NCBI GenBank assembly: GCA_964587565.1
Contig: CAZPLK010000001.1
Span: 701 to 64,700 of the forward strand
DNA length: 64,000 nucleotides
Direction of reading: 5' to 3'
DNA from: an uncultured Muribaculaceae bacterium
GTDB taxonomy: Bacteria > Bacillota_I > Bacilli_A > RF39 > UBA660
Both the position numbers and the translations under genes were made by a program. Positions 1 through 17,504 of the stretch are shown in pieces (the first letter of the stretch is position 1; every line of letters begins with the position of its first letter). Under the pieces are notes generated by a model. It did not search any database, had not been told where the DNA came from, and worked only from the letters and a program-made list of their open reading frames with translations.

Positions 1-990
1 CTGACAGTTGATTCAGAGGTTAATGTCGCAGAAGGCGGTATTAAAAACACAGGAATTGAAAACTCAGTAAGAGTTGCATTCACACAAATAGGCCGTGTTA
101 AAGCTGATGTAACGGATCAAGAGATTATTACTGGCATTACTTGCGATGGTGATGAGTCTGAAGGAGTAACAGGAATTTGTAGAGATGCTCAAATTTGGGA
201 ACCAAATAACACGAGTCACGTACAAGGTGCTATTAACTGGTATAATAAATCTTGCCGTGCAAGAACTGGGGAAGATTTAAGAGAAAAGGAATCGTATGGA
301 GGAGATTGCGGTGTAGTAGTTGACGGTCAACATTACCCAACTTATGCGATTAATCAAATAATTAACTCAGAAGATAGAGTTGATATATACGATGGTAAAG
401 CATTTAACAGTTACATGGATACAGTTGTTACTGAAGATAATGCTGAAGGATTCTTAACAGATTATAAATATTTTACTGATACTGAAAAATATGAAGCAGG
501 TACAGCACGTTTACCGTTTATGTATTTAGCGCCAAACAGTATTACAAAAGTAAGAATTTATGTTTATATCGAAGGACAAGATATTGATAATTACGATTTC
601 GCACAAATTGGTAAGAAAATTACTGTAAACTTCGGTTTTACAAAACAAAGATTTACAGAAGCGGATATCGATTATAACGATCCACTTGTTAACCAGCAAT
701 TTGGACCAGAAGGTGAAGATTTAACTCCACCACGTTTAACATTATTGCCATACGGCGATACTGAGCAAACAGATTTAGTAGTTTTAACAAAAGGTGATGA
801 GTACGAAGAAGCGGGTGCTACTGCGGTAGATCTTCAAAAAGATGGAACAGAAGAAGAAATAGAAGATGTTAAAGCTGTAGGAGTAGTTAACACAAATGTA
901 CCAGGTACTTATTATGTTACTTATAAAGCTAAAGATAAAGCTGGTAACTTAGGTACAATTGTTAGAACAATTGTGGTCGAGAAAGAATAA
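1..990 (+). CDS. 5'-truncated secreted protein (open from window start), TasA/camelysin-like paralog with a C-terminal Ig-like (DUF5011-type) domain
   Basis: Frame 1 has no stop from nt 1 to 990. It shares the motif 'ITK[VL]R[IV]YV[YW]IEGQDID' with the next ORF. The C-terminal stretch 'TPPRLTLLPYGD...GATAVD...VPGTYYVTYKAKDKAGNLGTIVRTIVV' is a classic bacterial Ig-like surface-protein domain. Confidence 0.5.
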   Translation: MTVDSEVNVAEGGIKNTGIENSVRVAFTQIGRVKADVTDQEIITGITCDGDESEGVTGICRDAQIWEPNNTSHVQGAINWYNKSCRARTGEDLREKESYGGDCGVVVDGQHYPTYAINQIINSEDRVDIYDGKAFNSYMDTVVTEDNAEGFLTDYKYFTDTEKYEAGTARLPFMYLAPNSITKVRIYVYIEGQDIDNYDFAQIGKKITVNFGFTKQRFTEADIDYNDPLVNQQFGPEGEDLTPPRLTLLPYGDTEQTDLVVLTKGDEYEEAGATAVDLQKDGTEEEIEDVKAVGVVNTNVPGTYYVTYKAKDKAGNLGTIVRTIVVEKE

Positions 991-1114
991 TTAGACATAA
1001 CTTACAATTAAATATATAAAATACTGACTAATGGTTATGTTAGTAATTAATTATTATTGGAATAATGAAGAGTAGCCAAAGTTGGTTGCTCTTTAATTAT
1101 TATAGGAGGTATTT

Positions 1115-2188
1115 ATGGATAAAAAAGGGGAAAATGTGAAGAAGAAAAGAATAAAACCGTTAAAAATTAATACAACATTATTAAAAGTATTAATGTTTTT
1201 GACTGCAATTTTCTTAATAATCTCTTCGTATGCATGGTTCTCTACCTCATTAAATGTTCGAATTAAATTTTTTGATTTAGTAGTATCAACAGATACTGGT
1301 TTATTTATATCGCTTGATGGGGTAAATTTTTCTGAAAATATCGAAGTATCTGTCGATAGTATAATAAGAGATTTAAGGGCTGTTTATCCTAACCATACAA
1401 ATCAATGGGCAGTCGGAGGATTATGGCCAGTATCTTCTCTTGGAATAAGAAATTCAAATTCTGATAGGTTTGATATGTTTATTGGCGAAATATACAGACC
1501 AATTGGACGTGAAAAAGATGATGAAATAAAATATTTAAATACAAATAGGTATAATGAAATTGGTCCATCCGCTTCCAATGTTTATGTAGCATTTGATATA
1601 TTTTTGAAAAACGTAAGTGGTTCACCTTATAATGATAATTTATATTTTACTGATGACACTTACATAGATTTTGACGGTGAAGTCCATGAGGAAACACAAG
1701 AGAAAATGAGCGGAATTATGAATTCACTAAGAATGGGTATTGTAAAAATTGGAAGTGTTTCATTAAATGCAGAAGTAAATACAATTCAAAATATTAGATG
1801 TAATAATAATTGCCAAGCAATTATATATGAGCCAAATAAAACGAGACACTCTGATATATCAATTGAAAATGCCGCAAAATTAGGAATTGATTTAGTGGAT
1901 GGAGTTTATTCTCCTACGTATGCGGTTATCAATCCTGGTAAAAAATTAGAGCATTTTAGTGGTCACGGAGGACGCCCTCTTGATACTGATCACTTTGCAT
2001 TACAAAGAACAATTGCATTTGAAGAGTTTGATAATCCGATTTTTGATATTCCAAACGGAATTACAAAATTAAGAGTATATGTATGGATTGAAGGTCAAGA
2101 CATAGACAGTTTAGAGACGCATTCAATTGGAGCACCAATATTTATCGCAATAGGACTTGAAAAAGACTTAGCTGGTTATGAAGAATAA
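1115..2188 (+). CDS. TasA/camelysin-family (peptidase M73-like) secreted protein with a SipW-cognate-type signal peptide
   Basis: Strong RBS 'aggaggt'. N-terminal lysine-rich region, a hydrophobic core, then 'SSYAWFSTSLNV', which resembles the 'TFAYFSD / TWAAFND' cleavage region of CalY/TasA. The C-terminus shares the 'IEGQDID' block with the upstream ORF. Confidence 0.55.
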   Translation: MDKKGENVKKKRIKPLKINTTLLKVLMFLTAIFLIISSYAWFSTSLNVRIKFFDLVVSTDTGLFISLDGVNFSENIEVSVDSIIRDLRAVYPNHTNQWAVGGLWPVSSLGIRNSNSDRFDMFIGEIYRPIGREKDDEIKYLNTNRYNEIGPSASNVYVAFDIFLKNVSGSPYNDNLYFTDDTYIDFDGEVHEETQEKMSGIMNSLRMGIVKIGSVSLNAEVNTIQNIRCNNNCQAIIYEPNKTRHSDISIENAAKLGIDLVDGVYSPTYAVINPGKKLEHFSGHGGRPLDTDHFALQRTIAFEEFDNPIFDIPNGITKLRVYVWIEGQDIDSLETHSIGAPIFIAIGLEKDLAGYEE

Positions 2189-2202
2189 GAAGGAGTGATG
2201 TT

Positions 2203-2352
2203 ATGAAGAAAGGTGAAAACAAAGTTAATTTTGATTTATCAACATTAAAATTAGAAGAATTAATAGATGTTTATAAAAACATAAATGACTTTCTTAAATT
2301 TTTAGATGAATCAAAAATTAAACAAAGTGAGAAGGTGGAAAATCCGAATGGC
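2203..2352 (+). CDS. Small hypothetical protein (49 aa), translationally coupled to the next gene
   Basis: Good RBS 'gaaggagtgatgtt' before the ATG. The stop overlaps the downstream start (atggctaa). Not in the supplied ORF track (too short). Confidence 0.3.
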
Positions 2353-4000
2353 TAATTTTTTAAATTTTATTAATGATGATATTATTGCTAAAAAAACATT
2401 ACTTTCTACTTTACCAACAAAAACAAAAGCTAATATTAAAAATTATAATGATAAAATAAATTCAATTATAAAAGATTATGAAAGTTATAAGGAAAGTGTT
2501 AGAAAATATCTTATTGCAAAAAATAATTCCTTTGAAATTGATAAAAATTATCATAATGTCGATGTCTTAAAAAAAGAAATAGAAGAATTAGAACAAATAC
2601 GGTTGTTATTAAATCCAACCAATACTTTTTTTGAAAAGATGGGATTTGATACACTTTTATATAACATAAGAAATTATTCTGATTTTAATTTCACTTCTAT
2701 GAATGAAATAATAAATGAATTTTTAACTAATTTTGAAAAAGCTGGTATTATACTTACAGTAAGCGATTTTGATTACACATATTATGTTAGAGAATATATG
2801 TCGTCATTTTTGGATATTAGAAATTCAACAAGTAGAAGTTTTGATATGTTATCAAAAACATTTGAAGAAATTTATTGGGAAAACCCAAATCTAATTCAAC
2901 AAATAGAACTTAATTTTAGAAAATTAATCAAAAAAAATCGTCGTAAATTTGACGCATACATCGCTAATGCGCAAAAAGAAATAATGTGGAAAAATAATAT
3001 TGGGAATTATAAAGATTGTATAAATAAACTTAAAATAAAATATTCTGAGTTAGAGGAAAATGGCAAAGAAGATATTGCAGATATTATTGAATTAGCCAAA
3101 AAAGGTGAGTTGGAAATCAATAATTTCTTTGAAGGTAGTAGAGTAATGGAAACGACATACCAATCATTAACAATTGAACAATTAGATTTAAATAACAAGC
3201 AATCATTGGACAACTTTTACGCTAATTTAAAAAAATTAAAAGATAATATTAATGAATACAATAATTACTTAACTTTTATGCCTTTGTTTGAAAATTTTAA
3301 AAATGAATTTAGAAAACCTCAACCTTCCACAATACAAGAGCCAGCTAGAAGAAACATAAGTAAATTACGTGCTATAGAAACAAAAATAAATGAAAAAGAA
3401 AATATACTTGCAAAATTAAATCGTAATTTATTTTCAACCGGAAGAAGTTTCTTTGGTTTTAAAAATGATATTCCTCCTCGTCAAATAAAACAGGATTCAA
3501 TTATTTTGTCTTCTGAACTATATAAGCTTTATAATGACTTTGATCAAGAATTATTTAGAGAAAAAGTTAAGCAAATTTTAAATGATTTTTTAACTGTGCC
3601 AGAATTACTACATTTATACTATAGTTTTGATTACTTTAAAAAGAAAGATATTAAAAAGGCTTTTAATTTAGAACAATATGATGAAATAATCCAGCAAAGC
3701 AAAAAATTTGATGAATTTGCAAAGAATCCTAATAATTTAATAACTAATGGTGTATCAATATTCTCAAAAAGTGATATCAGTAAAATAATTGTAAATAAAT
3801 ACCGCCTCGATAATATAAATATCACAGAAGAAAATTTAGAGCAAAGAGAATTAGAATCGTTATTAAATCAAATTGAATATTTACTTAGAATAGAAAAAAT
3901 TAATAAAAGTGAAACTACAGTAGAAAAAATTTGGTTTATGGTGAAAGTTACTAATATATTAAAAAAAGAAGAAGAAGAAAAAAAGAAAAAAATTCCGTAA
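2348..4000 (+). CDS. Hypothetical cytoplasmic coiled-coil protein of about 550 aa, no signal peptide, lysine-rich C-terminal tail
   Basis: Long ORF. The ATG at 2348 is preferred (RBS 'aaggtgg', overlaps the stop of the small ORF) over the track start at 2306. No recognisable catalytic motifs; K/N/E-rich helical composition. Confidence 0.45.
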   Translation: MANFLNFINDDIIAKKTLLSTLPTKTKANIKNYNDKINSIIKDYESYKESVRKYLIAKNNSFEIDKNYHNVDVLKKEIEELEQIRLLLNPTNTFFEKMGFDTLLYNIRNYSDFNFTSMNEIINEFLTNFEKAGIILTVSDFDYTYYVREYMSSFLDIRNSTSRSFDMLSKTFEEIYWENPNLIQQIELNFRKLIKKNRRKFDAYIANAQKEIMWKNNIGNYKDCINKLKIKYSELEENGKEDIADIIELAKKGELEINNFFEGSRVMETTYQSLTIEQLDLNNKQSLDNFYANLKKLKDNINEYNNYLTFMPLFENFKNEFRKPQPSTIQEPARRNISKLRAIETKINEKENILAKLNRNLFSTGRSFFGFKNDIPPRQIKQDSIILSSELYKLYNDFDQELFREKVKQILNDFLTVPELLHLYYSFDYFKKKDIKKAFNLEQYDEIIQQSKKFDEFAKNPNNLITNGVSIFSKSDISKIIVNKYRLDNINITEENLEQRELESLLNQIEYLLRIEKINKSETTVEKIWFMVKVTNILKKEEEEKKKKIP

Positions 4001-4082
4001 GGAGTTTTTTTAATGTAAAAAAAGTCGAATTGTGTTATAATTATATTATAATAATACTATGGCTCTATAAAGGAATGATGTT

Positions 4083-7000
4083 ATGGTAAAGGGGAATATA
4101 AAAACAAATAATATTAAAAAAGTTAATTACATAATTATTTTAGTATGTATAATTTTTTTGTTGCTTATATCAATTCCTACTATGGCAAGATTTAAAAATA
4201 GAAACACTTTAAAAAGAGTAACTACATGGGATGGTAGTGTCGCTAAAAATTATCGCAGCGGTGACGGTTCAAAAGAAAATCCCTTTTTAATAACCAACGG
4301 TTCTGAATTGGCGCATTTTTCTGAACAATTAGAAACAAATAATTATTTAGATATTTATTTTGAATTAAATAACGATATCATTATTAATGAAGGAATATTT
4401 AAATATGATGCAAATAACGGCATTTTATATATTAAAGATAATATAACTTATTATGTTGATCACGATACTAACAAATATTATAAAACAAAAGAACGTGATG
4501 GTGAGGTTATAGGAACTATTAATACGATGAAATCATTTGATAATTTCAAAGGACATTTTAATGGAAATTCATTTTCTATATTTGGATTTTATTTATCAGA
4601 TGAAATTAGCAATGAACTAGCACCGTTTACTAATTTGAATGGGAATATTAACAATCTTTATTTAGAAAATACAATGATTTATGGTGGTAATTATACTTCC
4701 GGTGTAGTCTCAGTTGCAAATAATAGTGAGTTAGAAAACATTTTTTCATCTGGCTATGTAGTAGGTAACAAGGATTATACATTGAATGAAAAAATAATTA
4801 CGTTACCAAATATAGAAGAAACACTTTCAAATGATGAATTAATTAAAAATGTTGAACTACCTAATAAAATACCATTAATTCACAGTGACATTAAAAACAT
4901 TAGTATTACTGGTAAAGTGGATTTATTAAATAAATGTGATCAAATAACTTTATTTGTAAATGACGTTGAAATAGAAAAAGCTGGGGAATTTGAATTAGAA
5001 CTAAATAATGAAATTTCTAAAAACTTAAATTTTAAACTTGTTTCCCAATGTAATGAAGAAACAAATATAAAAATAACAAATTTGCAATATAATGTGAAAT
5101 ATAATCACTCAGCAACAGCTGGAATTATTGCATTATCGCATAACAATAAATTGAAAAACATAATAAACAAAAGTGAAGTTTATGGTGAATTTATAAGTTC
5201 TGGATTAATTGGTACCAGCATAGATTCATTAACTATAACAAACGCTTATAATAAAGGTGCTATTAACAGCGAGAACAAAGGTGCGGGTTTAATAGGAGTT
5301 ATTGAGCAAAGTGACGATGTAATAATTAACAAATCATTTAATGAAGGTAATATAAATTTAGAAGATAATATAGGTTTAATATCTAATATATATAACGTTG
5401 ATAATATGATCGTTCAAAATAGTTTTAACACAGCTAACACTAATTATTTAATAAACACAATTCAATATTCTGTTGTTAATTTTGAAAATGTCTTTTACAC
5501 AACTGGATTAACACCTATCAAAGACGGTATTTATAATGGAATGATTAACGTTACCTTTTTAGAAAACTTAAAAGACAAGGAATTTTTAACAAATTATTTA
5601 TATTTTGAAGAGTTTGATGAAATAGAAAATATAAGCGAAGGCAAAAAAGTTTGGATTTTTGAAGAGGAAAGTTTGCCAATATTATATATTGATGATTTAA
5701 ACAAACCTCTTGTTAATATAAATGCTTTAACATACTCATGGAATAATTATTCTACTTCATTAAATGGTTATAAATTTTCTAAAAATATAACTTTTAATAT
5801 AGAAGAAGCAAATGAATTAAATAAAGTGGAAAATATATATTATTATATAAGTAACACTAGTGAACCATTATTCAAAGAAGAGTTAAATCAAATTAGTAAG
5901 TGGGAAACTTACAATGACATTGTTCAAATAAAAGAAGAAGGAATTTATGTTATATATGCTAAAATAATCGATATAAATGGAAATGTATTTTATATAAACA
6001 CAGATGCACTAGTCCTTGATTCAACAGGTATAACTTTAAATATAAGTTATAAAGATTTTTCATGGTCAGAATTTAGTAACGATTTAAAACAAATTTATAT
6101 TTACGAGCCTGAAATTTTAAATGTATCTTATAACAGTGTAATTTCATCAATAACTAACGCTCAATATTATATATCAAATGAACAATTAACAAGCAAAGAG
6201 TTAGATCAAATCACTGATTATGGCTGGAACGATTTAGAAGATGATATTTTGGTTAGCAATGTAGGGAATAACATAGTTTATGTAAAATTAATTGATAACT
6301 TTGGTTATGTTACATACGCCAATACTGATAAAATCTATATGGATTCTTATATTAATTCTAAAACATTACTCGGTAGAGGTGTTAAAGATTACCTAAACAA
6401 AGATTATAATATAAACACGAAATCATCTATTACTTTAACTTATAAATATTTAAATGAAGAAGCAAGTGATGATGCAGAATATTCACACAACTTAATTACA
6501 AGTAGTTTATTACCGAAGAATACTATTATTACTTTAATAGATAACATAAAAGAAAAGGTTTACACATACCAAATTCCAACTGATGAAGATTATTATAATT
6601 ATAATAAATCATGCGAATCGAATGATGGTGAATGTTATAAATATGCAACATATCCCTTTACTTTATTTAAAGAGGTCGGAATAGCGAATAAACCATTTGT
6701 GGAAGAGAGTTATTTTGTAGCGGGTAAAATAGAAGAAAACTTTGATGTAATAATAGATTTTTCTAAAACAAACATTACTGAAAATTTAACTAATGTAAAA
6801 GTTAAATTAGAAAAAACTAATAATAATATTTATATTACTACTAATGATAAAAATATTAAAACCTTTAATGTATTACAAGATTCTAATTATAATTTGAAAA
6901 TAAATACTGATTATGAAGATGGTCCGATTTTATACAATACCGATTCAGTAACAAATATTAATTTAACTGGTGGCGTAAAGTATTTTAAAACTAATAATAC

Positions 7001-8314: not shown

Positions 8315-8326
8315 GGTGGTGCTACG

Positions 8327-9831: not shown

Positions 9832-9849
9832 ATTATTACATTTAATATA

Positions 9850-9877
9850 GCACGTTTATTAAAAACGTGTTTTTTTA
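9850..9877 (+). terminator. Rho-independent terminator after the first surface-protein operon
   Basis: Stem cacgttt / aaacgtg (9851-9857 / 9863-9869), loop attaa, followed by an 8-T run. Confidence 0.6.
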
Positions 9878-9938: not shown

Positions 9939-9975
9939 TTATATATGGTAGAGTCTAAAGAGTAGGAAGGGTACT

Positions 9976-12327
9976 ATGAATAATAATAAAAACGTTGTTG
10001 TTGAAAAAGCAATTAATTTTTTATTGAATATATTGATTTTCATGTTTAGCATATTTTTATTGATATCTGTTTATATTGGATTTCAAACAAGAATTATCGG
10101 TAACGACTATGCTAATTTTTTTGGATATTCTTTGTTTGAAGTGCAAAGCGGAAGTATGGAAGATGAAATCAAAATTGGTGATTGGATTGTTGTAAAGCTA
10201 ACTAAAAACGTTGATTTTAATGATATTATAACATTTGAATTAGACGGAGAATTTGTAACACATCGCATTGTAGAGGTATATAAAGGTACTTTTGTTACAC
10301 AAGGGGATGCAAATAATAAAAAAGATGATCCAATAGATCAAAGTCAAGTAGTTGGTAAAGTAGTAAAAGTTTTAGGAGGGTTTGGCATTATAAGAAAGAC
10401 ATTATTTAATCCAATAGTATTATTATCACTTATAATTACGTTATTGTTGTTTAACTTTGCTTTTAAAAGTAATAAAATTAGTATAAACAATGAGTTAATA
10501 AATAATTTGTTAGAAAGTTTAGGTAATTTCATTGAAAACATTACTAATAAATTTAATAAATTGCTCAATAAAGACGAAATAAATGAAAGTTTCTTTGAAA
10601 AACAAAATTTAAATAGTGGTTTTATGAGTATAGAAAAGCAAGATGATTTTTTTGAAACAAAAGAATATGAAAAATTAGAAGAAGAATTAAGTAAAACCGC
10701 ATTGTATAGAGTAGTGACGGTTGATAAAGATAACGTTAAAGAAGATTTTAAAGTTTTAACGCCACAAAAAAAGACAGTAGAACAAATAGAAGAAGACTTG
10801 AGCAAAACATCATTGTACAGAATTATATCAGCTAATACAGAAGATGTCCCAAACAAATATAAAAACACTGACGTCAAAGTAAGTAGTAAAACTCAAACTC
10901 AAAAATATGCAGAAATTGAGGATGAATTAGGGAAAACTTCAATTTTCAGGGTAATATCAGTTGATAACGAAGAAGGCGAAAATGAAAAGCAAGAAAAGAT
11001 AAGCGAAACTTCACTGCATCGCTTTGTATCGGTAAATAATAATGAAACTGATAAAACTATTTCTGAAATCGCAAAACATGAAATAAAAGAGGAGCAGAAG
11101 CCTGAGAATGTAAAAATTAATCAAGAAGATAAAGAAATTACAAAAGTGGAAAAAGAAGATGATGAACACACTAAAGAAGAAGGGTTAACGGATATTAATT
11201 TAGAACTATTAAAAAGTAAAAATAGCAGACGTGGTAAAAATATTATTGATAAAACAATGATTATTAAAAAAGAAGAGTTAGATGAATTAATTGATATTTT
11301 AGTAAAAGACGATCCTACATATGTATACCGCGCAAGGGTTAAAGACAGATTCATCATATCTTACACTGATGCAAAATATTATAATTATTATGGTGCTGTT
11401 GAAATCGAAACACGTGGCAGGAACTTAACATCTAGAATAAAAGTTATTATTAAAATCTTAACTGAAGATATAATAAAAGAATACAAAGGCAAAGATAAAA
11501 ATTACCATGAAATTATTGAAAAATACTTAAAATTATTTACACTAATTGCCGATTTAGAGCAAGCAAGGGATTCAGCAACTACTGTAACAGCAAAAAAGAA
11601 ATTATATAGCAAATACCTTAATGATTATTTTGGCAATGTTAAACAAAGTGAAATAAATAATTTGATTGATGAAATTATGGATGTTCAACAAAGATACTTG
11701 GATACTATTAATTACTTTTTAGATCAACTAAAAACGAATGCTTTCGTACTGACTCAAAATAAAATAGTAGGTGCTAGGAACATGTTTGGACTATCACTTG
11801 AACATAATATTACGTTTAGTAAAGTTTATAGCGATTACATTATTGATAAAACATATACCGAGGGAATTGTGGCGGAAGATAAAGTATCAGTATTACTATC
11901 ACTGTTATCAGTACAATTAGTTGATGATATGTTAAATGCCAACTTTGACAACAAATATGTTGTTCATATACCAGTAAGTTTATACGGGAAAAAGCGCAAA
12001 TTGGCAAGTACTTTAAGACTTATAGATAATGAATATGCTAAAAGTAATATTATAATTTTAATTGAATATAAAGACTTATTAAAAAACAGACAAGTTGTTA
12101 AAGAATACAAAAAATCAGGATATAGATTTGGCTTAACATTTCATAAAAATGATAATTTATTAAAAAAGGATCACTCGTTATTATATATAGTAAATTGTTT
12201 CTTTATAAACAGAAGAACAAATGATATGAAAAAGATAATTTTATCAATACCAGAAGAATTATCGGATAAAATTATATCAGATGATGTTATTACTAAAGTG
12301 GGTGATTTTGGGGGTGAATCAACATGA
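9976..12327 (+). CDS. Type I signal peptidase SipW (archaeal-type S26) fused to a 4x tandem-repeat linker and a large cytoplasmic C-terminal domain resembling a degenerate EAL domain
   Basis: N-terminal TM. 'SGSMEDEIKIGDWIVVKL', 'VTHRIVEV' and 'TQGDANNKKDDPID' match the B. subtilis SipW Ser/His/GDAN boxes. A second TM ('PIVLLSLIITLLLFNFAF'). Four repeats of 'EE[ED]L[SG]KT[AS][LI][YF]R[VI][VI][ST]V[DN]'. C-terminal domain has 'YGAVEIETRG', 'ILIEYKDLL', 'GYRFGLTFHKND' and 'LLYIVNCFFINRR', which resemble the EAL blocks GvEALlRW / lEiTE / DDFGTG / lKIDrsF. Confidence 0.6.
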   Translation: MNNNKNVVVEKAINFLLNILIFMFSIFLLISVYIGFQTRIIGNDYANFFGYSLFEVQSGSMEDEIKIGDWIVVKLTKNVDFNDIITFELDGEFVTHRIVEVYKGTFVTQGDANNKKDDPIDQSQVVGKVVKVLGGFGIIRKTLFNPIVLLSLIITLLLFNFAFKSNKISINNELINNLLESLGNFIENITNKFNKLLNKDEINESFFEKQNLNSGFMSIEKQDDFFETKEYEKLEEELSKTALYRVVTVDKDNVKEDFKVLTPQKKTVEQIEEDLSKTSLYRIISANTEDVPNKYKNTDVKVSSKTQTQKYAEIEDELGKTSIFRVISVDNEEGENEKQEKISETSLHRFVSVNNNETDKTISEIAKHEIKEEQKPENVKINQEDKEITKVEKEDDEHTKEEGLTDINLELLKSKNSRRGKNIIDKTMIIKKEELDELIDILVKDDPTYVYRARVKDRFIISYTDAKYYNYYGAVEIETRGRNLTSRIKVIIKILTEDIIKEYKGKDKNYHEIIEKYLKLFTLIADLEQARDSATTVTAKKKLYSKYLNDYFGNVKQSEINNLIDEIMDVQQRYLDTINYFLDQLKTNAFVLTQNKIVGARNMFGLSLEHNITFSKVYSDYIIDKTYTEGIVAEDKVSVLLSLLSVQLVDDMLNANFDNKYVVHIPVSLYGKKRKLASTLRLIDNEYAKSNIIILIEYKDLLKNRQVVKEYKKSGYRFGLTFHKNDNLLKKDHSLLYIVNCFFINRRTNDMKKIILSIPEELSDKIISDDVITKVGDFGGEST

Positions 12328-13850
12328 ATACATTTTTTAGATTTTTCTATGAATTTATTTCAGTTTTTATTTCGGGTATTACATTAGTAATAAAAGGATT
12401 GATTGCAGGGGTTATTCAAATTATAAACGTTAGAGAGTATCAAAAAATTATTAATAGTTATAAAGAAAACTTTAAAACCTCTCAATGGATTTTAGTTGGA
12501 TTTTCGATCGCACTTTTAGTAATCATTATAGCTCTTGTAATATTTTTAATAATTATAGGAATTAGAAGGTTTTTAAGATTTAGAAGAACAAGATTAAATC
12601 AAGAAGATTTATTAGATGAAATTGCAGATTTAAACGATCAAGTTAGGAAGTTAATGAAGGAAAAAGATGAAATAATGGCAATGAAAGTATCAAAACTGGG
12701 TCTTAAACCTGGTGAAGAAGGTTATGAAGATAGCTTAGAAGAGTTAGAAGATGGTGAAATCGATATGTCCAATATTAGATTTCCAAAATTACATAAAATT
12801 GATCAAGATTATAAAAACTTTAAAGCAAGAAATTATAATAATAACTTTACATTAGAAGAATTAGTTGATAATTTTCAAGCTTATGCAGCTAGTCAATTAA
12901 AGCTTTATTACGAAAAATCTTTATTAAGAGCATTTATAGGTGGTTTATCAACTGGACGTTTAATTATATTACAAGGTATATCCGGAACTGGTAAAACATC
13001 CTTAGCTTATGCTTGGGGGAAGTTCGTTAACAAGGATTCTTGTGTGGCATTTGTTGAACCGTCATGGCGAGATAAAACTGAATTTCTAGGTTATTTTAAT
13101 GAATTTACAAAAAAATTTAACGAAACAGATGTATTAGCAGAACTTTATGTCGCATCGCTGGATGATGATGTTCATACGATTATTCTTGATGAAATGAATA
13201 TAGCACGAGTAGAATATTATTTTGCAGAAATGCTTTCTATTTTAGAAATGCCATCACGTGATGAGTGGATTATTGAATTGGTTACAAGTTCTTGGAAAGA
13301 AGATCCGGAAAGGATTGTGGGTGGTAAATTAAAACTACCTGGTAATTTATGGTATATCGGTACCATTAATAATGACGATTCAACGTTTATGGTTACTGAT
13401 AAAGTTTATGACCGTGCGATGCCAATAGATATTAATAATCGTATTGATCCATTTGAAACAAGAGAACAAGAAGCGATGAGTATCAATGCTAGTTATTTAG
13501 AAAATTTATTTGAAGAAGCTACAAAAACTCATCCAGTGTCGGCGGAAAATTTACAAAAAATTAAAGACATGGATGATTATGTAATAAAACATTTTAGAGT
13601 TGCTTTTGGTAACAGAATTATGATGCAACTACAAACATTTGTACCTGTTTATGTTGCTGGAGGTGGTTCCGAAGTAGAAGCGATAGATTACTTTATTGCA
13701 CGAAAAATATTCCGTAAATTCGATCAATTAAATTTTGCACTTATCCGTAATGAAATCGATCCGTTTATTGAATATTTAAACAAAGAATTTGGAGACGGTG
13801 TTATGAAAGAATCAATTGATTATTTTGAATTATTAAAAAAATCAATGTAA
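12324..13850 (+). CDS. Membrane-anchored McrB-like AAA+ GTPase (AAA_5 family) with an N-terminal TM hairpin and a coiled coil
   Basis: 'LIILQGISGTGKTSLAYAWGKFV' matches McrB 'IILQGPPGVGKTFVARRLAYLL'; 'FVEPSWRDKTEFLGYF' matches 'QFHQSYSYEDFIQGY'; 'IILDEMNIARVEYYFAEMLSILE' matches 'FIIDEINRANLSKVFGEVMMLME'; 'NLWYIGTINNDDSTFMVTDKVYDRAMPIDI' matches '[31 protein letters not shown]'. N-terminus 'WILVGFSIALLVIIIALVIFLIIIGIRRFLRFRR' is a TM segment. 4-nt overlap with the upstream gene. Confidence 0.7.
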   Translation: MNTFFRFFYEFISVFISGITLVIKGLIAGVIQIINVREYQKIINSYKENFKTSQWILVGFSIALLVIIIALVIFLIIIGIRRFLRFRRTRLNQEDLLDEIADLNDQVRKLMKEKDEIMAMKVSKLGLKPGEEGYEDSLEELEDGEIDMSNIRFPKLHKIDQDYKNFKARNYNNNFTLEELVDNFQAYAASQLKLYYEKSLLRAFIGGLSTGRLIILQGISGTGKTSLAYAWGKFVNKDSCVAFVEPSWRDKTEFLGYFNEFTKKFNETDVLAELYVASLDDDVHTIILDEMNIARVEYYFAEMLSILEMPSRDEWIIELVTSSWKEDPERIVGGKLKLPGNLWYIGTINNDDSTFMVTDKVYDRAMPIDINNRIDPFETREQEAMSINASYLENLFEEATKTHPVSAENLQKIKDMDDYVIKHFRVAFGNRIMMQLQTFVPVYVAGGGSEVEAIDYFIARKIFRKFDQLNFALIRNEIDPFIEYLNKEFGDGVMKESIDYFELLKKSM

Positions 13851-13863
13851 AGGGTGATTAAAA

Positions 13864-14997
13864 ATGTCTAAGGCCATAAAGGTAAGTATAGATGAAAAAT
13901 TAAGGAAAAAAAGTAATACATTTAGCAACAGAATAAAATCAGATATGTACTTTAAGGGTGAGGTTTCTGGCGAATCAATTTCATTTGAATGGTTGGATAT
14001 AATTGAAGAAGCTTGCCCTTACTTAGATAATGTTATTAGAAATCCTAGAGTTGCACTTATTACTGAAGAAGAAATTGTTAAAATAGAAAAAGCTAAAAAG
14101 GTCTCTGTTGCTAGTGTTAAAAATTTAGCTAAAAACACACAATACATTGATAAAATTGATAAAGTAACAGAAGATGTGCAACCGTCACGACTTTTAATTG
14201 AAAGACGTGAAGAAACATATAATACATACGAAAACAGATTTCTTTTTACAGTTGTAAAATTATTAATAAGATTTGTCGCTGACAAAGAAGAATCATTAAA
14301 AGAATTGATTATGAAAAAAGATAAAGTTATGGAATATGCTGCTGTTACTAACACAGACACAGAAAGAGTTAATATTAAATTAAATATTTCTACAAGTGAA
14401 ATACCAAAAGAAGTTATGGCTGATGCCTATGAAAATGAAATTAATAATGTTAAAAATCGTTTAAAAGAAATTAATGCATATTTTTCTATGTGGCAAAGAA
14501 GTGATTTTATGACTTCATTAGAAAAAGCTAGAGTAACTCCGGTATCGCCTCCAATAAGAAAGACAAACTTAATCTTAAAAAATCCTAATTTTCAAATGGC
14601 TACAAAATTATGGGAGTTTTTGAGAAATTACGAAGATGAAGAAAAAGATGAAACAAAAGTTGATTTGGAAACAACTGGAAATAAAATGTTAAAAGGAATA
14701 TTGGATGATATGTTTTTAACAAATTATTTTGTTTTAGATTCAATAAAAGCTGATAAAAGTGCTGAAAAGGAAAAATTAACTAAATATGCTGTCTTAATGT
14801 TAACACAACAAGTTAGACGTGCAATTCAACTATTAATAGATAGTGGGGTTGAAATTTCAGATGAAGAGATAATTAGTATGATTTCAGCTGAAATTAAAGC
14901 AGACGAAGGGAAAACAACAGCAGATAGTTCTGATGTTAAGAGAAAATTTAAAAAAGCTGTTGATGATTATATAGAGAAAATGCAAGATTATTTGTAG
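13864..14997 (+). CDS. Hypothetical cytoplasmic partner of the McrB-like GTPase (possible McrC-N-terminal/DUF2357-like activator; no nuclease motif)
   Basis: Starts 13 nt after the GTPase gene with RBS 'aagggtga'. Contains 'ETYNTYENRFLFTVVKLLIRFV', which resembles the 'NxxENRF' block seen in McrC-like partners. No PD-(D/E)xK motif found. Confidence 0.3.
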   Translation: MSKAIKVSIDEKLRKKSNTFSNRIKSDMYFKGEVSGESISFEWLDIIEEACPYLDNVIRNPRVALITEEEIVKIEKAKKVSVASVKNLAKNTQYIDKIDKVTEDVQPSRLLIERREETYNTYENRFLFTVVKLLIRFVADKEESLKELIMKKDKVMEYAAVTNTDTERVNIKLNISTSEIPKEVMADAYENEINNVKNRLKEINAYFSMWQRSDFMTSLEKARVTPVSPPIRKTNLILKNPNFQMATKLWEFLRNYEDEEKDETKVDLETTGNKMLKGILDDMFLTNYFVLDSIKADKSAEKEKLTKYAVLMLTQQVRRAIQLLIDSGVEISDEEIISMISAEIKADEGKTTADSSDVKRKFKKAVDDYIEKMQDYL

Positions 14998-15005
14998 GTG
15001 GTAAA

Positions 15006-15569
15006 ATGAATATAATAAATGAAAATAAAATTTTAAAAATAATAATAAAAATTATTAAAACAGCTATTTTGATTTTTTTATTAGGATTTATACTAGTTGT
15101 TTGCTTACAGCGCTTTAGCAATAATAAGATTTCTTTTTTTAAATATCGAATGTTTATAGTAGTATCAGGCAGTATGTATCCGGTTTATGACATAGGAGAT
15201 GTATTAATAGCTAAAGAAGTCAAACCTTCAACGATTAAAGTTGGTGATGCAATTAGTTATGAAGGTAAAGTAGGAGATTTAAAAGGCAAAGTAATAACAC
15301 ACGAGGTTATAAAAATAGATTATGATAAAGATTCCAATAAATATAAATTTCATGCAAAAGGTCGTGCAAACGTTATTGAAGATCCAATTGTTTCAGAAGA
15401 ACAATTATATGGAATAGTAATCCATAAAACTTTGTTACTGTCAATGATTTATAAAATAATAGGTACTCAACTGGGATTTTTCTTAGCTATTATAATACCC
15501 TTATTATATATATTTACCTCTGAGATTATTGGGTTTTTACTAGAACGTGAGGCTAAAAGAAGAGGTTAA
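15006..15569 (+). CDS. sipW: Type I signal peptidase SipW (archaeal/eukaryotic-type S26)
   Basis: N-terminal TM, 'FIVVSGSMYPVYDIGDVLIAKEV', 'VITHEVIKI', 'AKGRANVIEDPI', C-terminal TM; matches the B. subtilis SipW boxes. Confidence 0.7.
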   Translation: MNIINENKILKIIIKIIKTAILIFLLGFILVVCLQRFSNNKISFFKYRMFIVVSGSMYPVYDIGDVLIAKEVKPSTIKVGDAISYEGKVGDLKGKVITHEVIKIDYDKDSNKYKFHAKGRANVIEDPIVSEEQLYGIVIHKTLLLSMIYKIIGTQLGFFLAIIIPLLYIFTSEIIGFLLEREAKRRG

Positions 15570-15595
15570 AAAACGTTAGAAAAGGGGAGATGTGA

Positions 15596-16834
15596 ATGAA
15601 AAACAAGTATAAAGTTTACTGGCGTATAAATTTATTGTCGTTATTTTTTATCATCTTATCATTCATATCGGTTACATTGGCTTGGTTTGCCTATAGTGGA
15701 CTTTCTAATGTATCAACTGAAATTGGAGTAAAAGCTTGGTATATTACACTGGAAAAAGACGGTGAAATGATCTCGAATGATATTGTTATATCATCATCGG
15801 AAATATACCCAGGTATGGAAACATTGACAGAGACAGTTAAAATTCAAAATTTAGGAGATTCAGATGCAAATATAAGGTATTCAATTTTATCAGCAAGAAT
15901 ATTAGATCAACCTGAAAATAATTTTGTTGTAAATGACAAAACTGTTACAAGTGATTATGTTGAGGATCAATTATCGCATAGTTATCCTTTCAAAGTTAAT
16001 ATAAATTTATCAAAAGGATATGTTCTTGCAAAAGGTGATGAAAGTTTTTTTGAAGTTTCAATATCATGGCCACTTGATTCTGGTGATGATGGGTTAGATA
16101 GTTATTGGGGAAGTGAAGCTTTTAAGTTTCAACAAAGTGAAACAAATAGGAAAAGTGCTAATCCAGAATATCAAAAAAAACAACCTATACAAATAGTAAT
16201 TAGTGTAATCGCTGAACAAGATGTTGGTGATGAAAATTCAAATGATCCCAACTTTAATTTGGGAGATCAAATATTATTTGATGTAATTAATAATAAATCA
16301 TGTAAAGAATTAAGTGAGACTTGTATATCAACGTATGTAATTGATAGTAATAATAAAATAGCAAATAACAAAGTAACGCTTTTACCAACCCCTAGAAAGA
16401 CTTATTTAAGTGGTATTTATAGTAATTACAATTCTTTATTAAAGGGGGTAACAAGTGATTGGAATGTTGAAACACGGGCATTATATATTGAAGATATATT
16501 AAACGTAATATCAACAGATATTTTTAATTCAAAACTATTAAGTGATGAAATAACTGGAGTAGTAATCGGTGATTTAAAGTATCCGAATCGAATTCAAACA
16601 GAAATAGAAAAAGTAAAAAGTACAAATGGTTATTATAATTTTCGCAATGAGAAATTCCAATACATTTCCACAGCAAACTGTTATTGGATTAACAGTAGAT
16701 ATAATTCATCTAAATCATTTGCTATTAAGAGAGTTAATGAAGAAATTTCAAAAGTGTATGGTTTAGATAATAATTCTACATGTAATGTTGTCCCTGTAAT
16801 TACAGTGGATAAAAACAAAATAAAACAGGATTAA
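15596..16834 (+). CDS. TasA/camelysin-family secreted protein (412 aa) with SipW-cognate signal
   Basis: 'ISVTLAWFAYSGLSNVSTEIGVKAWYITL' aligns with CalY 'GGGTFAYFSDKEVSNNTFAAGTLDLTL'. 'VKIQNLGDSDANIRYSI' aligns with 'LLQNSGSLTIKDVKL'. Confidence 0.65.
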   Translation: MKNKYKVYWRINLLSLFFIILSFISVTLAWFAYSGLSNVSTEIGVKAWYITLEKDGEMISNDIVISSSEIYPGMETLTETVKIQNLGDSDANIRYSILSARILDQPENNFVVNDKTVTSDYVEDQLSHSYPFKVNINLSKGYVLAKGDESFFEVSISWPLDSGDDGLDSYWGSEAFKFQQSETNRKSANPEYQKKQPIQIVISVIAEQDVGDENSNDPNFNLGDQILFDVINNKSCKELSETCISTYVIDSNNKIANNKVTLLPTPRKTYLSGIYSNYNSLLKGVTSDWNVETRALYIEDILNVISTDIFNSKLLSDEITGVVIGDLKYPNRIQTEIEKVKSTNGYYNFRNEKFQYISTANCYWINSRYNSSKSFAIKRVNEEISKVYGLDNNSTCNVVPVITVDKNKIKQD

Positions 16835-16850
16835 CAAATCCTGTTTTACT
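16822..16850. terminator. Bidirectional rho-independent terminator between convergent genes
   Basis: 10-bp stem aaaacaggat / atcctgtttt, loop taacaa (contains the stop codon), T-rich on both sides. Confidence 0.6.
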
Positions 16851-16877
16851 TTGCAATATTGAATTATTTATGCCATT

Positions 16878-17504
16878 TTATTCAAATATTTGCTTAAATG
16901 ATACATCAGCTTTAATTTGTAATGTTATGTCTTCCGTAGCTGCCAAATGTCCGATCATTGAATCGTCTTCATCATTCATTAATTCCTCTTCACCCTCATA
17001 CCATTCAAAAAATATTCTTATAGTAAATGGTTTAAATTTAAAGTCCTCTTCTTCTTTGTTAAAGATTAATGCCTTTTTAATTTCTTTATCGTTTAAATTT
17101 ATTATTTCTATCGGATCATCTTCAATATAAGAGTCAGGTAAGATTGCATATTTAGTAATTATTAAATCAGGTATATTTTCATTTTGGACTTCTAAATTTA
17201 CTAAGTATTCAAACGATACTTCAACATTACTAGCATCTATCTTAATATCGAAATACCCTTTAGATGTTGGGGCGATTTTATTAGGCGCAATGTACTCGCT
17301 TTCTTCAATAATTGGTTCAAACATCAATGAAGATTCTGAGTTATTTGTAATATCTTCATTATTAACGAGTATTTGCCATTTAGCAAAAGTAGCCTCAATA
17401 TTCCCAGTTGCATCAGCAACATATCGTGAATATGTGGTACTCATAAGACAAAGACAAATGGATAAAGATAACATCCCAATTAAAAATTTTATTTTTCTAA
17501 ACAT
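16878..17504 (-). CDS. TasA/camelysin-like secreted protein (208 aa)
   Basis: Signal peptide then 'TTYSRYVADATGNIEATFAKWQIL', paralogous to 8327-9226. RBS 'aaaggagg' upstream on the minus strand. Confidence 0.5.
   Translation of the reverse strand: MFRKIKFLIGMLSLSICLCLMSTTYSRYVADATGNIEATFAKWQILVNNEDITNNSESSLMFEPIIEESEYIAPNKIAPTSKGYFDIKIDASNVEVSFEYLVNLEVQNENIPDLIITKYAILPDSYIEDDPIEIINLNDKEIKKALIFNKEEEDFKFKPFTIRIFFEWYEGEEELMNDEDDSMIGHLAATEDITLQIKADVSFKQIFE

Follow-up and report, generated by a model that had tools for sequence, protein, structure and literature searches.

A conserved cluster of signal peptidases, secreted proteins and an McrB/McrC-like pair in uncultured Bacillota that probably belongs to the CoCoPALM type

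Two published systems bear on the locus reported here. CoCoPALM was named by Bell et al. 2024 (eLife) in one paragraph, without further description, as McrB GTPases of the NxD type that carry a fused FtsB-like transmembrane and coiled-coil domain; it is set there beside the CoCoNuT systems in a census of McrBC restriction systems. On the extracellular side, AbpA is a published homolog of TasA and a donor-strand pilin (PMC9245690). The locus analyzed here is a conserved 14-gene cluster carried by hundreds of uncultured Bacillota from gut and digesters; it spans positions 1-17504 of the window (the whole stretch of DNA analyzed, 64,000 nucleotides), with the left end of the system lying outside it. 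Through its McrB/McrC-like pair (g8 and g9) it matches the CoCoPALM description of Bell et al., and the best explanation, which we regard as rather probable, is that the locus is one conserved apparatus of that type.

Composition and conservation of the locus

All open reading frames listed in the first-pass annotation were found where it had placed them. The genes and hairpins of the locus are as follows:

1-990, + strand: g0, C-terminal 329 residues, cut by the window edge
1066-1095, + strand: terminator-like hairpin after g0 (13-pair stem; consensus match only)
1115-2188, + strand: g1, secreted protein, 357 aa
2203-2355, + strand: g1b, conserved 50-aa open reading frame
2306 or 2348 to 4000, + strand: g2, cytoplasmic protein, 564 or 550 aa
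4083-7757, + strand: g3, secreted protein, 1224 aa
7769-8314, + strand: g4, secreted protein, 181 aa
8327-9226, + strand: g5, secreted protein, 299 aa
9295-9831, + strand: g6, SipW-like pseudo-peptidase, 178 aa
9849-9871, + strand: terminator-like hairpin between g6 and g7 (9-pair stem, then a T run)
9976-12327, + strand: g7, signal peptidase fusion, 783 aa
12324-13850, + strand: g8, McrB-like AAA+ GTPase, 508 aa
13864-14997, + strand: g9, McrC-like protein with DUF2357, 377 aa
15006-15569, + strand: g10, stand-alone SipW-type signal peptidase, 187 aa
15596-16834, + strand: g11, secreted protein, 412 aa
16815-16854, unstranded: hairpin between the convergent g11 and g12 (18-pair stem)
16878-17504, - strand: g12, secreted protein, 208 aa

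The same block was found in synteny across 78 fetched loci, and its genes each recur in 47 to 81 of 81 related loci while the adjacent tyrS recurs in 2, so the block exceeds chance. Relatives of g7 are encoded in at least 537 species genomes. The gene set is common to Bacilli and Clostridia; in the latter the order is rearranged, with the C-terminal domain of g7 (g7C), g8, g9, g10 and g11 still adjacent. No transposase or integrase was seen within the window and the right-hand neighbors are housekeeping genes, which supports the earlier view of a chromosomal locus. The first-pass annotation proposed two forward operons plus a convergent gene; the hairpins fit an arrangement of g0, g1-g6, g7-g11 and g12, with the 16815-16854 hairpin possibly serving as a bidirectional terminator. 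Promoter-like sites, one of which had been assigned to each unit, did not outnumber those of shuffled sequence (133 versus 136). Between the secreted proteins g1 and g3 lie g1b and g2, neither of which has a hydrophobic segment. The small g1b is 56-57% identical to genes of 44-48 aa called at the same position in two related loci (L001 and L002), and g2, found in 51 of the 81 loci, opens at 2306 with conservation starting at Met15 (base 2348). No match to g2 was detected in Pfam, PADLOC or NCBIfam, and no profile supported the coiled-coil nature previously ascribed to it.

The McrB/McrC-like pair and the signal peptidases

Judged from sequence, g8 and g9 are the core of the locus, a pair overlooked in the first-pass annotation whose identity alters what the locus is. 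Their genes are placed between those of the peptidases, g8 starting within the last 4 nt of g7, and no other genes of the block are as conserved or as tightly coupled (g8 and g9 are found in 74 and 68 of the 81 loci, respectively). By profile comparison, g8 matched McrB (PDB 6hz4) over 208 positions at an E-value of 3.2e-5, with the Walker B and signature motifs aligned. Its motifs are GISGTGKTS (Walker A), ILDEMN (Walker B) and a signature of I-N-N-D-D; among 25 orthologs the mean column identity was 74%, and N349, N350 and D351 were invariant. The NNDD motif is compatible with an NxD as well as an NxxD reading. In the N-terminal part of g8, residues 62-80 form a strong hydrophobic segment and residues 5-23 a weaker one, a short heptad stretch occupies about 91-122, and the protein is predicted to be membrane-anchored; homology of its N-terminus to FtsB/DivIC was not detected by Pfam HMMs. 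The partner g9 carries DUF2357 (PF09823, the McrC N-terminal domain) at 47.6 bits against a cut-off of 23.3. It has no hydrophobic segment and no match in the PDB, and no nuclease was detected in it, D...(D/E)xK being absent from the invariant columns. As a separate observation, the closest relatives of the g8 GTPase are defence candidates (PADLOC PDC-M26A; E-value 1.4e-38, 130.9 bits), which counts against the fibre machine considered below.

The three SipW paralogs of the first-pass annotation are indeed homologs: the g7 N-terminus (63.7 bits) and g10 (68.5 bits) score above the TIGR02228 cut-off of 51.85 bits, and g6 matches g10 by hhalign with a probability of 98.4%. The g7 N-terminus and g10 are predicted to be catalytically intact, and g6 to be a conserved inactive copy. 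In the g6 family the Ser column is occupied by I, V, E or L and the His column by Gly in 58 of 69 members, with transmembrane segments at 10-28 and 146-164. In the g10 family, also with two transmembrane segments, all 65 members keep the Ser, the His and the second Asp; the column of the first Asp holds I or L. Residues 1-160 of g7 correspond to an ER/archaeal-type signal peptidase with two transmembrane segments (E-value 2.7e-4 against SEC11A, 7p2p), and S60, H96, D111 and D117 are kept in 41 of 41 members. Behind the peptidase, g7 has about 630 cytoplasmic residues in all, comprising a linker with four (E/D)LSKTSLYRVISVD repeats (residues 240, 277, 320 and 344) and, at the C-terminus, a conserved domain of about 370 aa. 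Clostridia loci encode this domain and the peptidase as separate genes.

Secreted proteins and their relationship to TasA

At least seven proteins of the locus are predicted to be exported. Each of g0, g1, g3, g4, g5, g11 and g12 has a single N-terminal hydrophobic segment that ends in T-x-[A/S] followed by x-[F/Y], a junction that conforms to the -3/-1 rule for signal peptidase I. Each secreted family has 20-55 members that bear the T-x-[AS]-x-[FY] junction. The cytoplasmic and peptidase families lack it entirely, and of 363 other open reading frames 6 have it. Mature TasA (PDB 8aur) starts A-F, so that a single residue separates its cleavage site from the aromatic position, which is also the spacing in the junction motif of the cluster.

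The secreted proteins comprise several distinct families without a Pfam assignment. The best-conserved exported component is g1, a candidate major subunit, whose signal-anchor ends S-Y-A followed by W-F and which has the invariant motifs FDIFLKN, EPN..H and R-V-Y-x-W-x-E-G-Q-D-x-D. Of its 678 homologs, the top 120 share 54-79% identity with it; no precomputed Pfam domain was present in these 120, and g1 of the window had no Pfam match. Its AF2 model (pLDDT 78, moderate confidence) consists of an N-terminal helix and a beta-rich body for which neither a significant fold match nor a sequence match was found in the PDB, and neither structure nor sequence gave a significant match to TasA or any pilin. 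For the truncated g0, the N-terminus is seen in the full-length orthologs of L001 and L002, which open with a hydrophobic segment and then TYAWF, and the C-terminus is a Bact_surface_Ig-like domain (PF16403, E-value 1.5e-14). The giant g3, a candidate tip or adhesin, has its hydrophobic segment at 17-35, a signal-anchor ending P-T-M-A followed by R-F, and repeat units of GG(L/I)(I/V)G...NSYN.G.I at residues of about 200-480. No Pfam domain was found among 16 g3 members, the PDB match was weak (IgA1-protease-like protein 3n6z, E-value 0.016), and the beta-helix that it had been taken for was supported by no profile. The junctions of the remaining proteins are G-I-T-Y-S followed by I-F (g4), G-I-T-F-A followed by K-Y (g5), V-T-L-A followed by W-F (g11) and T-T-Y-S followed by R-Y (g12). 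Pfam gave no match for members of the g5 family or for g11 and its family members; g11 is about 210 aa in Clostridia loci. With no match in the PDB, g12 is found in 63 of the 81 loci, retains its opposite-strand orientation in related loci and has the motifs APSSKGYFDI, RVYFEWYEG and a terminal F-x-Q.

The first-pass annotation viewed these genes as an island of seven TasA/camelysin paralogs. What stands of that label is the presence of SipW-type peptidases beside secreted proteins with a TasA-like junction; family membership and paralogy do not. When the profile searches that it had itself proposed were run, TasA/camelysin membership largely failed: all open reading frames of the window miss the TasA/camelysin models, no secreted protein reached the cut-off of Pfam Peptidase_M73, and none of g1, g3, g4 and g5 reached that of the NCBIfam TasA/SipW-signal models. 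PF12389 was matched, below threshold only, by 7 of 25 g4-family members (best E-value 7.2e-5) and 1 of 64 remoter relatives, and not at all in the g5, g11 and g12 families (25 members for g12). As to paralogy, hhalign related the g0 and g1 families (99.8% probability) and g11 with g12 (90% over 184 columns), and joined g4 with g5 only over about 89 N-terminal residues (95.9%, 87 columns); g11 matched g1 in 41 N-terminal columns, and the remaining links were confined to about 40 N-terminal residues. The TasA paralog island was thus rejected, as the secreted proteins fail the TasA profiles and are not all interrelated.

By sequence comparison, TasA likeness appears marginal and limited to the family of the 181-aa g4. 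This protein has 881 representative clusters at an E-value of at most 1e-3, and NCBI gives the name 'TasA family protein' to P0247, which is 54% identical to it. The 'LKPGDK' block noted earlier as precisely TasA-like is present in g4, which contains DLKPGD and a C-terminal ...IEIKSxQ strand; hhalign with TasA (the PDB-verified mature sequence as query) aligned the LKPGD segment alone, over 34 columns at 5%, and found nothing in the g1 and g12 families. The AF2 model of g4 is a jelly roll (pLDDT 75, moderate confidence) with residues 23-47, after the signal, disordered; among the Foldseek matches listed, AbpA (7ueg_A) had the highest TM score (0.45, E-value 2.8e-3).

A putative GTPase-coupled surface machine

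The multi-subunit extracellular structure suggested by the first-pass annotation remains the best reading of the locus, the fibre itself being what we infer. Our preferred interpretation, which we consider reasonably likely, is a putative GTPase-coupled machine that would process and assemble a surface fibre. Subunits would enter the membrane via Sec and remain tethered by the signal-anchor until cleavage by g7 and g10 at the T-x-A junction frees an N-terminal strand that could act as the donor strand for polymerization, as in TasA and AbpA fibres. The fibre would be built chiefly of g0/g1-family subunits; g4, g5, g11 and g12 would serve as minor or adaptor subunits, and g3 would be an adhesin at the distal end. 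On the cytoplasmic side of the membrane, g9 would activate a hexamer of g8 that docks on the cytoplasmic domain of g7, possibly involving g2 and g1b, and GTP hydrolysis by this hexamer would gate, order or drive processing and assembly. The proposed role of g8 and g9 resembles that of the assembly ATPase and platform of type IV pili. The TasA, AbpA and BsaA fibres are not known to require an NTPase in the cytoplasm, and a motor role would for this reason be unprecedented.

Two other readings seem unlikely to us, to a similar degree. The locus may be (i) a derivative of type IV restriction, related to CoCoNuT, that serves defence or conflict, with the McrB/McrC-like pair sensing infection and the peptidases and secreted proteins providing the output (e.g., surface remodeling, receptor masking or abortive infection). 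The 130.9-bit match of g8 to PDC-M26A and the placement of CoCoPALM beside CoCoNuT in the McrBC restriction census of Bell et al. are in line with this; however, searches of g8, g9, g2 and g7C gave no nuclease, DNA-binding or RNA-binding domain, and g1, g1b, g2, g3 and g9 have no PADLOC match, that of g7 being a marginal one to HORMA (E-value 0.0081). The locus also lies among housekeeping genes. Its gene order is kept across hundreds of species and the column identity of g8 is 74%, whereas defence islands are, from general knowledge, typically patchy and fast-evolving. Alternatively, the locus may be (ii) an export or sorting system for a non-filamentous surface layer, with seven adhesin or coat substrates released or anchored singly after cleavage and the GTPase complex acting as a motor that extracts signal-anchored precursors or controls their quality. 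The heterogeneity of the substrates (the Ig-like g0, the 1224-aa g3 and several unrelated families), the lack of a pilin-like structural match for g1 and the general knowledge that AAA+ proteins often extract or unfold proteins are consistent with such a system. Against it, the g4 model resembles a donor-strand pilin with a disordered N-terminal strand, one abundant family with small minor proteins and one giant is generally the usual pilus operon, and McrB-type hexamers are not known for polypeptide threading.

Compared with these and with the preferred fibre machine, a duplicated but otherwise ordinary SipW/TasA-type biofilm-matrix operon into which an unrelated McrBC restriction system was inserted by chance is very improbable: SipW-like peptidases do adjoin secreted proteins with a TasA-like junction, the g4 family has its weak PF12389 matches and one NCBI 'TasA family' name, and McrBC systems are generally known as mobile defence genes, but the secreted proteins fail the TasA profile tests, no nuclease is detected in g9, the membrane segment of g8 occupies the place of the DNA-binding domain, g8 overlaps g7 by 4 nt, and synteny disfavors this origin, g8 and g9 holding their position in 74 and 68 of the 81 loci, respectively, across Bacilli as well as Clostridia.

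Gene content, order and boundaries of the cluster

The cluster at window positions 1 to 17504 that the first-pass annotation had singled out was found to be real, each of its ORFs (g0 to g12) recurring as part of a block across the 81 related loci compared, and it is the label attached to it that needs correction. As predicted from sequence, the conserved set joins (i) two active and one inactive SipW-type peptidases with at least seven exported proteins bearing one junction; and (ii) a McrB-like GTPase with a membrane anchor, its McrC-like partner without a detectable nuclease, and the cytoplasmic products g7C (the C-terminal domain of g7), g2 and g1b. The cluster region has a G+C content of about 24 to 33%; of its thirteen large ORFs, twelve are on the plus strand and one is convergent to them.

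Features of the cluster and its right flank in window coordinates. For secreted products, the junction that follows the N-terminal hydrophobic segment is included, with a slash at the junction point.
1-990, plus strand: g0, secreted protein, cut by the window edge; junction in orthologs TYA/WF
1066-1095: terminator-like hairpin after g0
1115-2188, plus strand: g1, secreted protein; junction SYA/WF
2203-2355, plus strand: g1b, 50-aa ORF (MKKGENKVNFDLSTLKLEELIDVYKNINDFLKFLDE...), below the ≥80-aa ORF listing
2306 or 2348 to 4000, plus strand: g2, predicted cytoplasmic protein
4083-7757, plus strand: g3, secreted protein; junction TMA/RF
7769-8314, plus strand: g4, secreted protein; junction TYS/IF
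8327-9226, plus strand: g5, secreted protein; junction TFA/KY
9295-9831, plus strand: g6, SipW-like peptidase homolog
9849-9871: terminator-like hairpin after g6
9976-12327, plus strand: g7, SipW-like peptidase homolog at its N-terminus, with domain g7C
12324-13850, plus strand: g8, McrB-like GTPase
13864-14997, plus strand: g9, McrC-like protein
15006-15569, plus strand: g10, SipW-like peptidase homolog
15596-16834, plus strand: g11, secreted protein; junction TLA/WF
16815-16854: terminator-like hairpin between the convergent g11 and g12
16878-17504, minus strand: g12, secreted protein; junction TYS/RY
17999-19228: tyrS, next gene after the cluster

The positions of the terminator-like hairpins are consistent with the earlier description, in which two operons run forward and a single gene converges on them. 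A promoter scan returned 133 sites compared with 136 in shuffles, which is the background level for a sequence of 27% GC. The start codon of g8 and the stop of g7 overlap by 4 nt, and related loci likewise have g12 on the minus strand. The annotated start of g2 is overlapped by g1b, with the conserved region of g2 beginning at Met15 (base 2348); g1b itself has counterparts of 56 to 57% identity in two related loci (L001 and L002), where a small gene occupies the equivalent position. Neither g2 (about 550 aa from Met15) nor g1b was found to have a hydrophobic segment or a recognised relative.

Homologs were detected in large numbers for g1 (678) and g7 (670). The best 120 of the g1 homologs, at 54 to 79% identity, were all unnamed or "hypothetical" and came from Bacilli and "Mollicutes" MAGs, while a pattern scan using one genome per species identified a g7 relative encoded in 537 genomes. 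For synteny comparison, 78 loci were fetched with 10-kb flanks. When the window proteins were compared by BLASTP with all ORFs of the 81 loci, g0 to g12 were each found to recur in 47 to 81 loci, and tyrS in only 2. The right boundary at 17504 is thus considered real, since g0 to g12 recur in a block whereas tyrS recurs in 2 loci. The left end at the window edge is not a true boundary, and the system is truncated by the window. Upstream in related loci were found additional genes of the g0/g1 family, together with a conserved protein of about 230 to 250 aa with one transmembrane segment; the extra paralogs to the left of the window-equivalent region all have the TYAWF junction, and g0/g1 is the truly expanded family. 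The one-transmembrane protein (230 to 248 aa) and two to four extra g0/g1-family paralogs were seen at 5815-6507 of L001 and at 7988-8734 and 1851-9980 of L002. The gene set as a whole is vertically conserved.

On the right flank, tyrS is under T-box leader control in many Bacillota; the 494-bp gap that precedes it here (17505-17998) gave no match to a T-box or other Rfam family, even at E ≤ 1, and across the entire 64-kb window neither a tRNA gene nor an Rfam family above its gathering threshold was detected. Directly after tyrS is a sugar-transfer-associated ATP-grasp protein (PF14397, E 1.3e-48; 19218-20231). The genes beyond tyrS include the housekeeping genes for EzrA, ThiI, PGK, iPGM, LysRS and DnaK, and a 352-aa Laminin_G_3/concanavalin-like protein is encoded further downstream (28971-30029).

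Signal peptidases and exported proteins

Three SipW paralogs had been proposed for the cluster. Homology was supported for all of them, in the N-terminus of g7 and in g10 by the archaeal/ER-type signal peptidase I model TIGR02228 (63.7 bits for the N-terminal 160 residues of g7 and 68.5 bits for g10; cut-off 51.85), and in g6 by hhalign (98.4% to g10 and 93.4% to g7); one of the three, g6, was found to be without the catalytic Ser and His and scored only 12.6 bits with TIGR02228. The g7 profile also matched human SEC11A (7p2p, E 2.7e-4). With the B. subtilis SipW equivalog model NF046067, g7 (58.4 bits) and g10 (49.5 bits) fell far under the 190-bit cut-off, and so both are regarded as SipW-type enzymes rather than SipW orthologs. 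In a joint alignment, (i) g7 conserved the Ser, the His and both Asp residues in 41 of 41 members; (ii) g10 conserved the Ser, the His and the second Asp in 65 of 65, the first Asp column being I/L; and (iii) g6 had I/V/E/L in the Ser column and Gly in the His column in 58 of 69. These replacements of the catalytic columns indicate that g6 is a conserved pseudo-peptidase.

Each of g6, g7 and g10 has an N-terminal and a C-terminal hydrophobic segment, and by this predicted topology the approximately 630 residues of g7 behind its second segment must be cytoplasmic. This part comprises a K/E-rich linker and, behind it, some 370 aa that form a conserved domain. Within residues 240 to 360 the linker holds four copies of the motif (E/D)LSKTSLYRVISVD, which occurs 0 to 4 times in homologs and may provide docking sites for the GTPase complex. 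The C-terminal domain had no recognisable relative in profile comparisons; a likeness to EAL domains was considered and rejected, as the motif order did not fit and profile support was absent. In Clostridia MAGs, g7 is split into a peptidase of about 170 aa and a separate cytoplasmic protein of about 330 aa directly upstream of g8, and the gene order is g6, g12-like, SipW, g4, g5, g7C, g8, g9, g10, g11, g12, one further gene, g1 and g2. The split form was seen in L055-L081 (e.g., L059 at 9974-13053 and L063 at 9995-13049), with g4 and g5 homologs between both halves; these loci also carry the extra g12-like gene upstream and a g11 of just about 210 aa.

The secreted products g1, g3, g4, g5, g11 and g12 have exactly one N-terminal hydrophobic segment each, as do full-length g0 orthologs. 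When the junction was expressed as a regular expression (a hydrophobic run, then [TS][YFWL][AS]x[FY]), it was detected in 20 to 55 members of each of the seven secreted families, in none of the g2, g6, g7, g8, g9 and g10 families, and in 6 of 363 other ORFs of at least 150 aa. The junctions obey the signal peptidase I rule of small residues at −3 and −1. The TasA precursor has the junction GTWA/AF, and mature TasA in PDB 8aur starts with A-F. The SipW-signal model TIGR04088 matched 1 of 52 g4 relatives (E 0.052) and gave no match to the window ORFs g1, g3, g4 and g5.

The secreted products had been described as seven TasA/camelysin-like paralogs forming an expanded island. This assignment did not hold, the locus being instead of the kind named CoCoPALM, as judged by the comparison in the next section, and both the profile and the hhalign tests against TasA were unsupportive. 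No window ORF matched the TasA/camelysin model PF12389, and a scan of g1, g3, g4 and g5 with NF046066 was likewise without a match. Similarity to these models was confined to the g4 family and was marginal: taken member by member, 7 of 25 matched PF12389, all sub-threshold (best E 7.2e-5); of the remoter g4 relatives, which were taken from the 881 clusters that an exhaustive search with the profile yielded at E ≤ 1e-3, 1 of 64 matched (E 0.0061); and NF046066 matched 1 of 52 g4 relatives (E 0.006). A g4 homolog of 54% identity is named "TasA family protein" by NCBI. The g5, g11 and g12 families gave no match to PF12389, and no Pfam domain was found in the best 120 of the 678 g1 homologs. Profiles of g1, g4 and g12 retrieved nothing at E ≤ 10 from all PDB sequences, TasA (5of1 and 8aur) included. 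By hhalign, PDB-verified TasA aligned with the g4 family over the LKPGD hairpin alone (34 columns, probability 5%) and with the g12 and g1 families not at all. All-against-all hhalign also ruled out that the seven are paralogs of one family. Relationships were found between g0 and g1 (99.8%), between g11 and g12 (90%) and, over about 89 matched N-terminal residues, between g4 and g5 (95.9%), with the remaining links limited to the approximately 40 N-terminal residues of the signal region.

The 1224-aa g3 product has repeated GG(L/I)(I/V)G...NSYN.G.I units, which look like solenoid repeats at the level of sequence pattern. No Pfam domain was detected in g3 (0 of 16 orthologs), its sole PDB match was a weak one to an IgA1-protease-like protein (E 0.016), and its designation as a beta-helix or GLUG protein was without profile support.

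Structure predictions were examined for two of the secreted products. The g1 model (pLDDT 78, pTM 0.76) starts with a helix, and the body behind it is rich in beta structure; Foldseek against the PDB returned nothing under E 0.04, and the TasA fibre 8aur ranked 32nd (E 0.73, TM 0.12 to 0.16). The g4 model (pLDDT 75) is a jelly-roll sandwich in which the post-signal residues 23 to 47 are disordered. Foldseek matched it to many generic jelly rolls, the highest TM among the matches listed being the weak one to Pyrobaculum AbpA (7ueg_A; TM 0.45/0.45, E 2.8e-3, rank 25); TasA was absent among the 50 matches listed.

The GTPase pair and its relationship to McrBC and CoCoPALM

The g8/g9 pair was overlooked in the first-pass annotation, and g8 is the most highly conserved protein of the locus (74% mean column identity). 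The features of a McrB-like AAA+ GTPase were all found in g8, namely an AAA+ core, Walker A, Walker B and an N-x(x)-D signature. Its Walker A (GISGTGKTS) and residues N349, N350 and D351 are invariant among 25 orthologs, and a profile of these orthologs matched E. coli McrB (6hz4, 6ut6 and 7vsr) at E 3e-5 to 7e-5 over 208 positions, aligning LDEMNxAR of g8 with IDEINRAN of McrB and GTINNDDS with the McrB signature GLMNTADRS. Pfam AAA_5 matched weakly in 11 of 25 family members. The N-terminus of g8 has a strong hydrophobic segment at residues 62 to 80 and a weaker one at 5 to 23, and about four heptads of a/d-spaced hydrophobic residues can be read from its sequence at approximately 96 to 122; the Pfam HMMs for DivIC/FtsB gave no match to this N-terminus in the 25 members. 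The g9 product is a DUF2357 (McrC N-terminal domain) protein (47.6 bits against a cut-off of 23.3). Its profile had no match among PDB sequences.

The pair resembles E. coli McrBC in its AAA+ GTPase core, where the Walker B and signature motifs can be aligned, and in the McrC N-terminal domain of the partner. It differs from E. coli McrBC, and from what restriction by such a system entails, in that g8 is without an N-terminal DNA-binding domain and g9 without a detectable PD-(D/E)xK nuclease, there being neither a nuclease profile match nor a D...(D/E)xK among the invariant residues of g9; further differences are the membrane anchor and a genomic context that is not one of defence. These differences speak against a role of the locus in defence, a reading that we regard as unlikely; in its favour is the score of 130.9 bits that g8 obtained with the PADLOC defence-candidate model PDC-M26A.

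The locus fits, by comparison with the published description, the CoCoPALM kind named in a survey of McrBC systems (Bell et al., eLife 2024, PMC11090510), which deferred its analysis to a later publication. That description occupies one paragraph and does not list the components; it gives, with the use of HHpred, a GTPase to which a transmembrane and coiled-coil domain resembling FtsB is fused, and the signature "NxD usually followed by E or D" (PMC11090510). In the present locus, (i) a predicted transmembrane segment and heptads at the g8 N-terminus replace the DNA-binding domain; (ii) the McrC-like DUF2357 partner g9 has no detectable nuclease; (iii) the McrB and McrC homologs are operonic with genes of the signal peptidase family, g7-g8-g9-g10 being adjacent in the window and in most of the 81 loci; (iv) the host phylum is Bacillota; and (v) the invariant N-N-D of g8, followed by a nearly invariant D, fits the signature when read as NxD, although it can also be read as NxxD. 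A literature search found no follow-up publication on CoCoPALM, and the supplementary text of PMC11090510 has no mention of CoCoPALM, SipW or TasA. Because the kind has only this one-paragraph description, the anatomy given here is mostly new detail: new relative to that paper are the families of putative substrates and the junction common to them, the inactive peptidase copy, g7 both as a fusion and as two split genes, the 50-aa ORF, and the 1224-aa protein. CoCoPALM has had a name in the literature and no published anatomy, and the parts list and cleavage motif make the system directly testable.

Proposed assembly mechanism and comparison with known surface fibres

We tentatively suggest, as a possibility to which we give somewhat over one chance in three, that the locus encodes a new class of Gram-positive filament, in which Sec-exported, SipW-cleaved subunits would be joined by donor-strand exchange and a nuclease-less, membrane-anchored GTPase derived from McrB/McrC would control or power assembly. 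In the more general explanation that we favour, the exported proteins would be cleaved at T-x-[AS]/x-[FY] and would then form a surface fibre, with g0/g1 as putative major subunits, g4, g5, g11 and g12 as minor subunits and g3 as a distal adhesin. The GTPase complex may dock on the cytoplasmic domain of g7 and thereby gate or power processing or assembly. The same genes might instead specify a non-filamentous coat or export system, an alternative that we hold to be about as improbable as a defence function; that McrBC was inserted by chance into a TasA operon is disfavoured and is contradicted by the synteny across related loci.

To our knowledge, no cytoplasmic NTPase takes part in the assembly of any TasA-type, sortase-type or chaperone-usher fibre, and McrBC is known to us only as a nucleic-acid-directed restriction motor; both fields would for this reason be extended by a conserved apparatus in which signal peptidases and pilin-like substrates are linked to a McrB-type GTPase. 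If the filament proposal is correct, a restriction-enzyme motor has been exapted as a pilus assembly engine, and a coupling of such a GTPase to the processing of pilin-like proteins would be both unexpected and widespread.

Several known systems share some of these properties. The B. subtilis tapA-sipW-tasA and B. cereus sipW-calY loci are similar in that (i) a dedicated ER-type signal peptidase gene adjoins the predicted substrate genes; (ii) a T-x-A, then x-F junction is present in both cases; and (iii) members of the g4 family have an LKPGD hairpin and a marginal similarity to Peptidase_M73. Unlike both, the cluster has three peptidase homologs, of which one is inactive and another continues into a large cytoplasmic domain, at least seven putative substrates from several families with none at TasA model thresholds, and in addition the GTPase pair and another two cytoplasmic proteins; a TapA-like gene was not recognised in it. 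The sipW-bsaA biofilm pilus operon of C. perfringens is a Clostridia example of a SipW-dependent matrix or pilus protein, and we know of no McrBC-like genes described for it; with the BsaA model TIGR04090, one g4 relative was marginal (E 0.032) and there was no significant similarity. The type IV pilus and archaellum offer a functional analogy only, in their dedicated peptidase, their major and minor subunits with a common N-terminal motif, their membrane platform and their cytoplasmic hexameric NTPase. No part is homologous; in the cluster, cleavage is expected after the hydrophobic segment and not before it, and the NTPase is a McrB-type GTPase and not a PilB/FlaI ATPase. Archaeal bundling pili (AbpA/AbpB, 7ueg; PMC9245690) share with g4, as predicted, a jelly roll and processing by signal peptidase I, and AbpA has its donor strand at the mature N-terminus (PMC9245690). 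Unlike the window cluster, the ABP operon has no dedicated peptidase; the TasA-like ABP operon of Pyrobaculum is reported to include one predicted GTPase, Pcal_0906, which related species do not conserve (PMC9245690).

The system is abundant in poorly understood uncultured gut Bacillota (former "Mollicutes/Tenericutes" MAGs), where attachment to host or particles could depend in part on a dedicated surface fibre; hundreds of uncultured Bacilli and Clostridia from gut and digester share it through vertical conservation. Variation was also observed among the related loci. In L003, minus-strand insertions were found inside the cluster at 2610-5992, 12991-14453 and 17913-19310, one of the inserted genes being a faint match to a DDE transposase; these insertions indicate that mobile elements can disrupt the locus elsewhere, though not in this window. 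Further loci (L015-L017, L027, L033, L038, L044, L051, L054, L056, L057 and L074) come from MAGs labelled Muribaculaceae or Actinomycetes, with proteins 40 to 60% identical, and a g1 homolog and a g7 homolog (P0107 and P0195) were labelled Ignavibacteriales. The gene content suggests that binning or labelling went wrong in these cases, and not that the system really occurs outside Bacillota.
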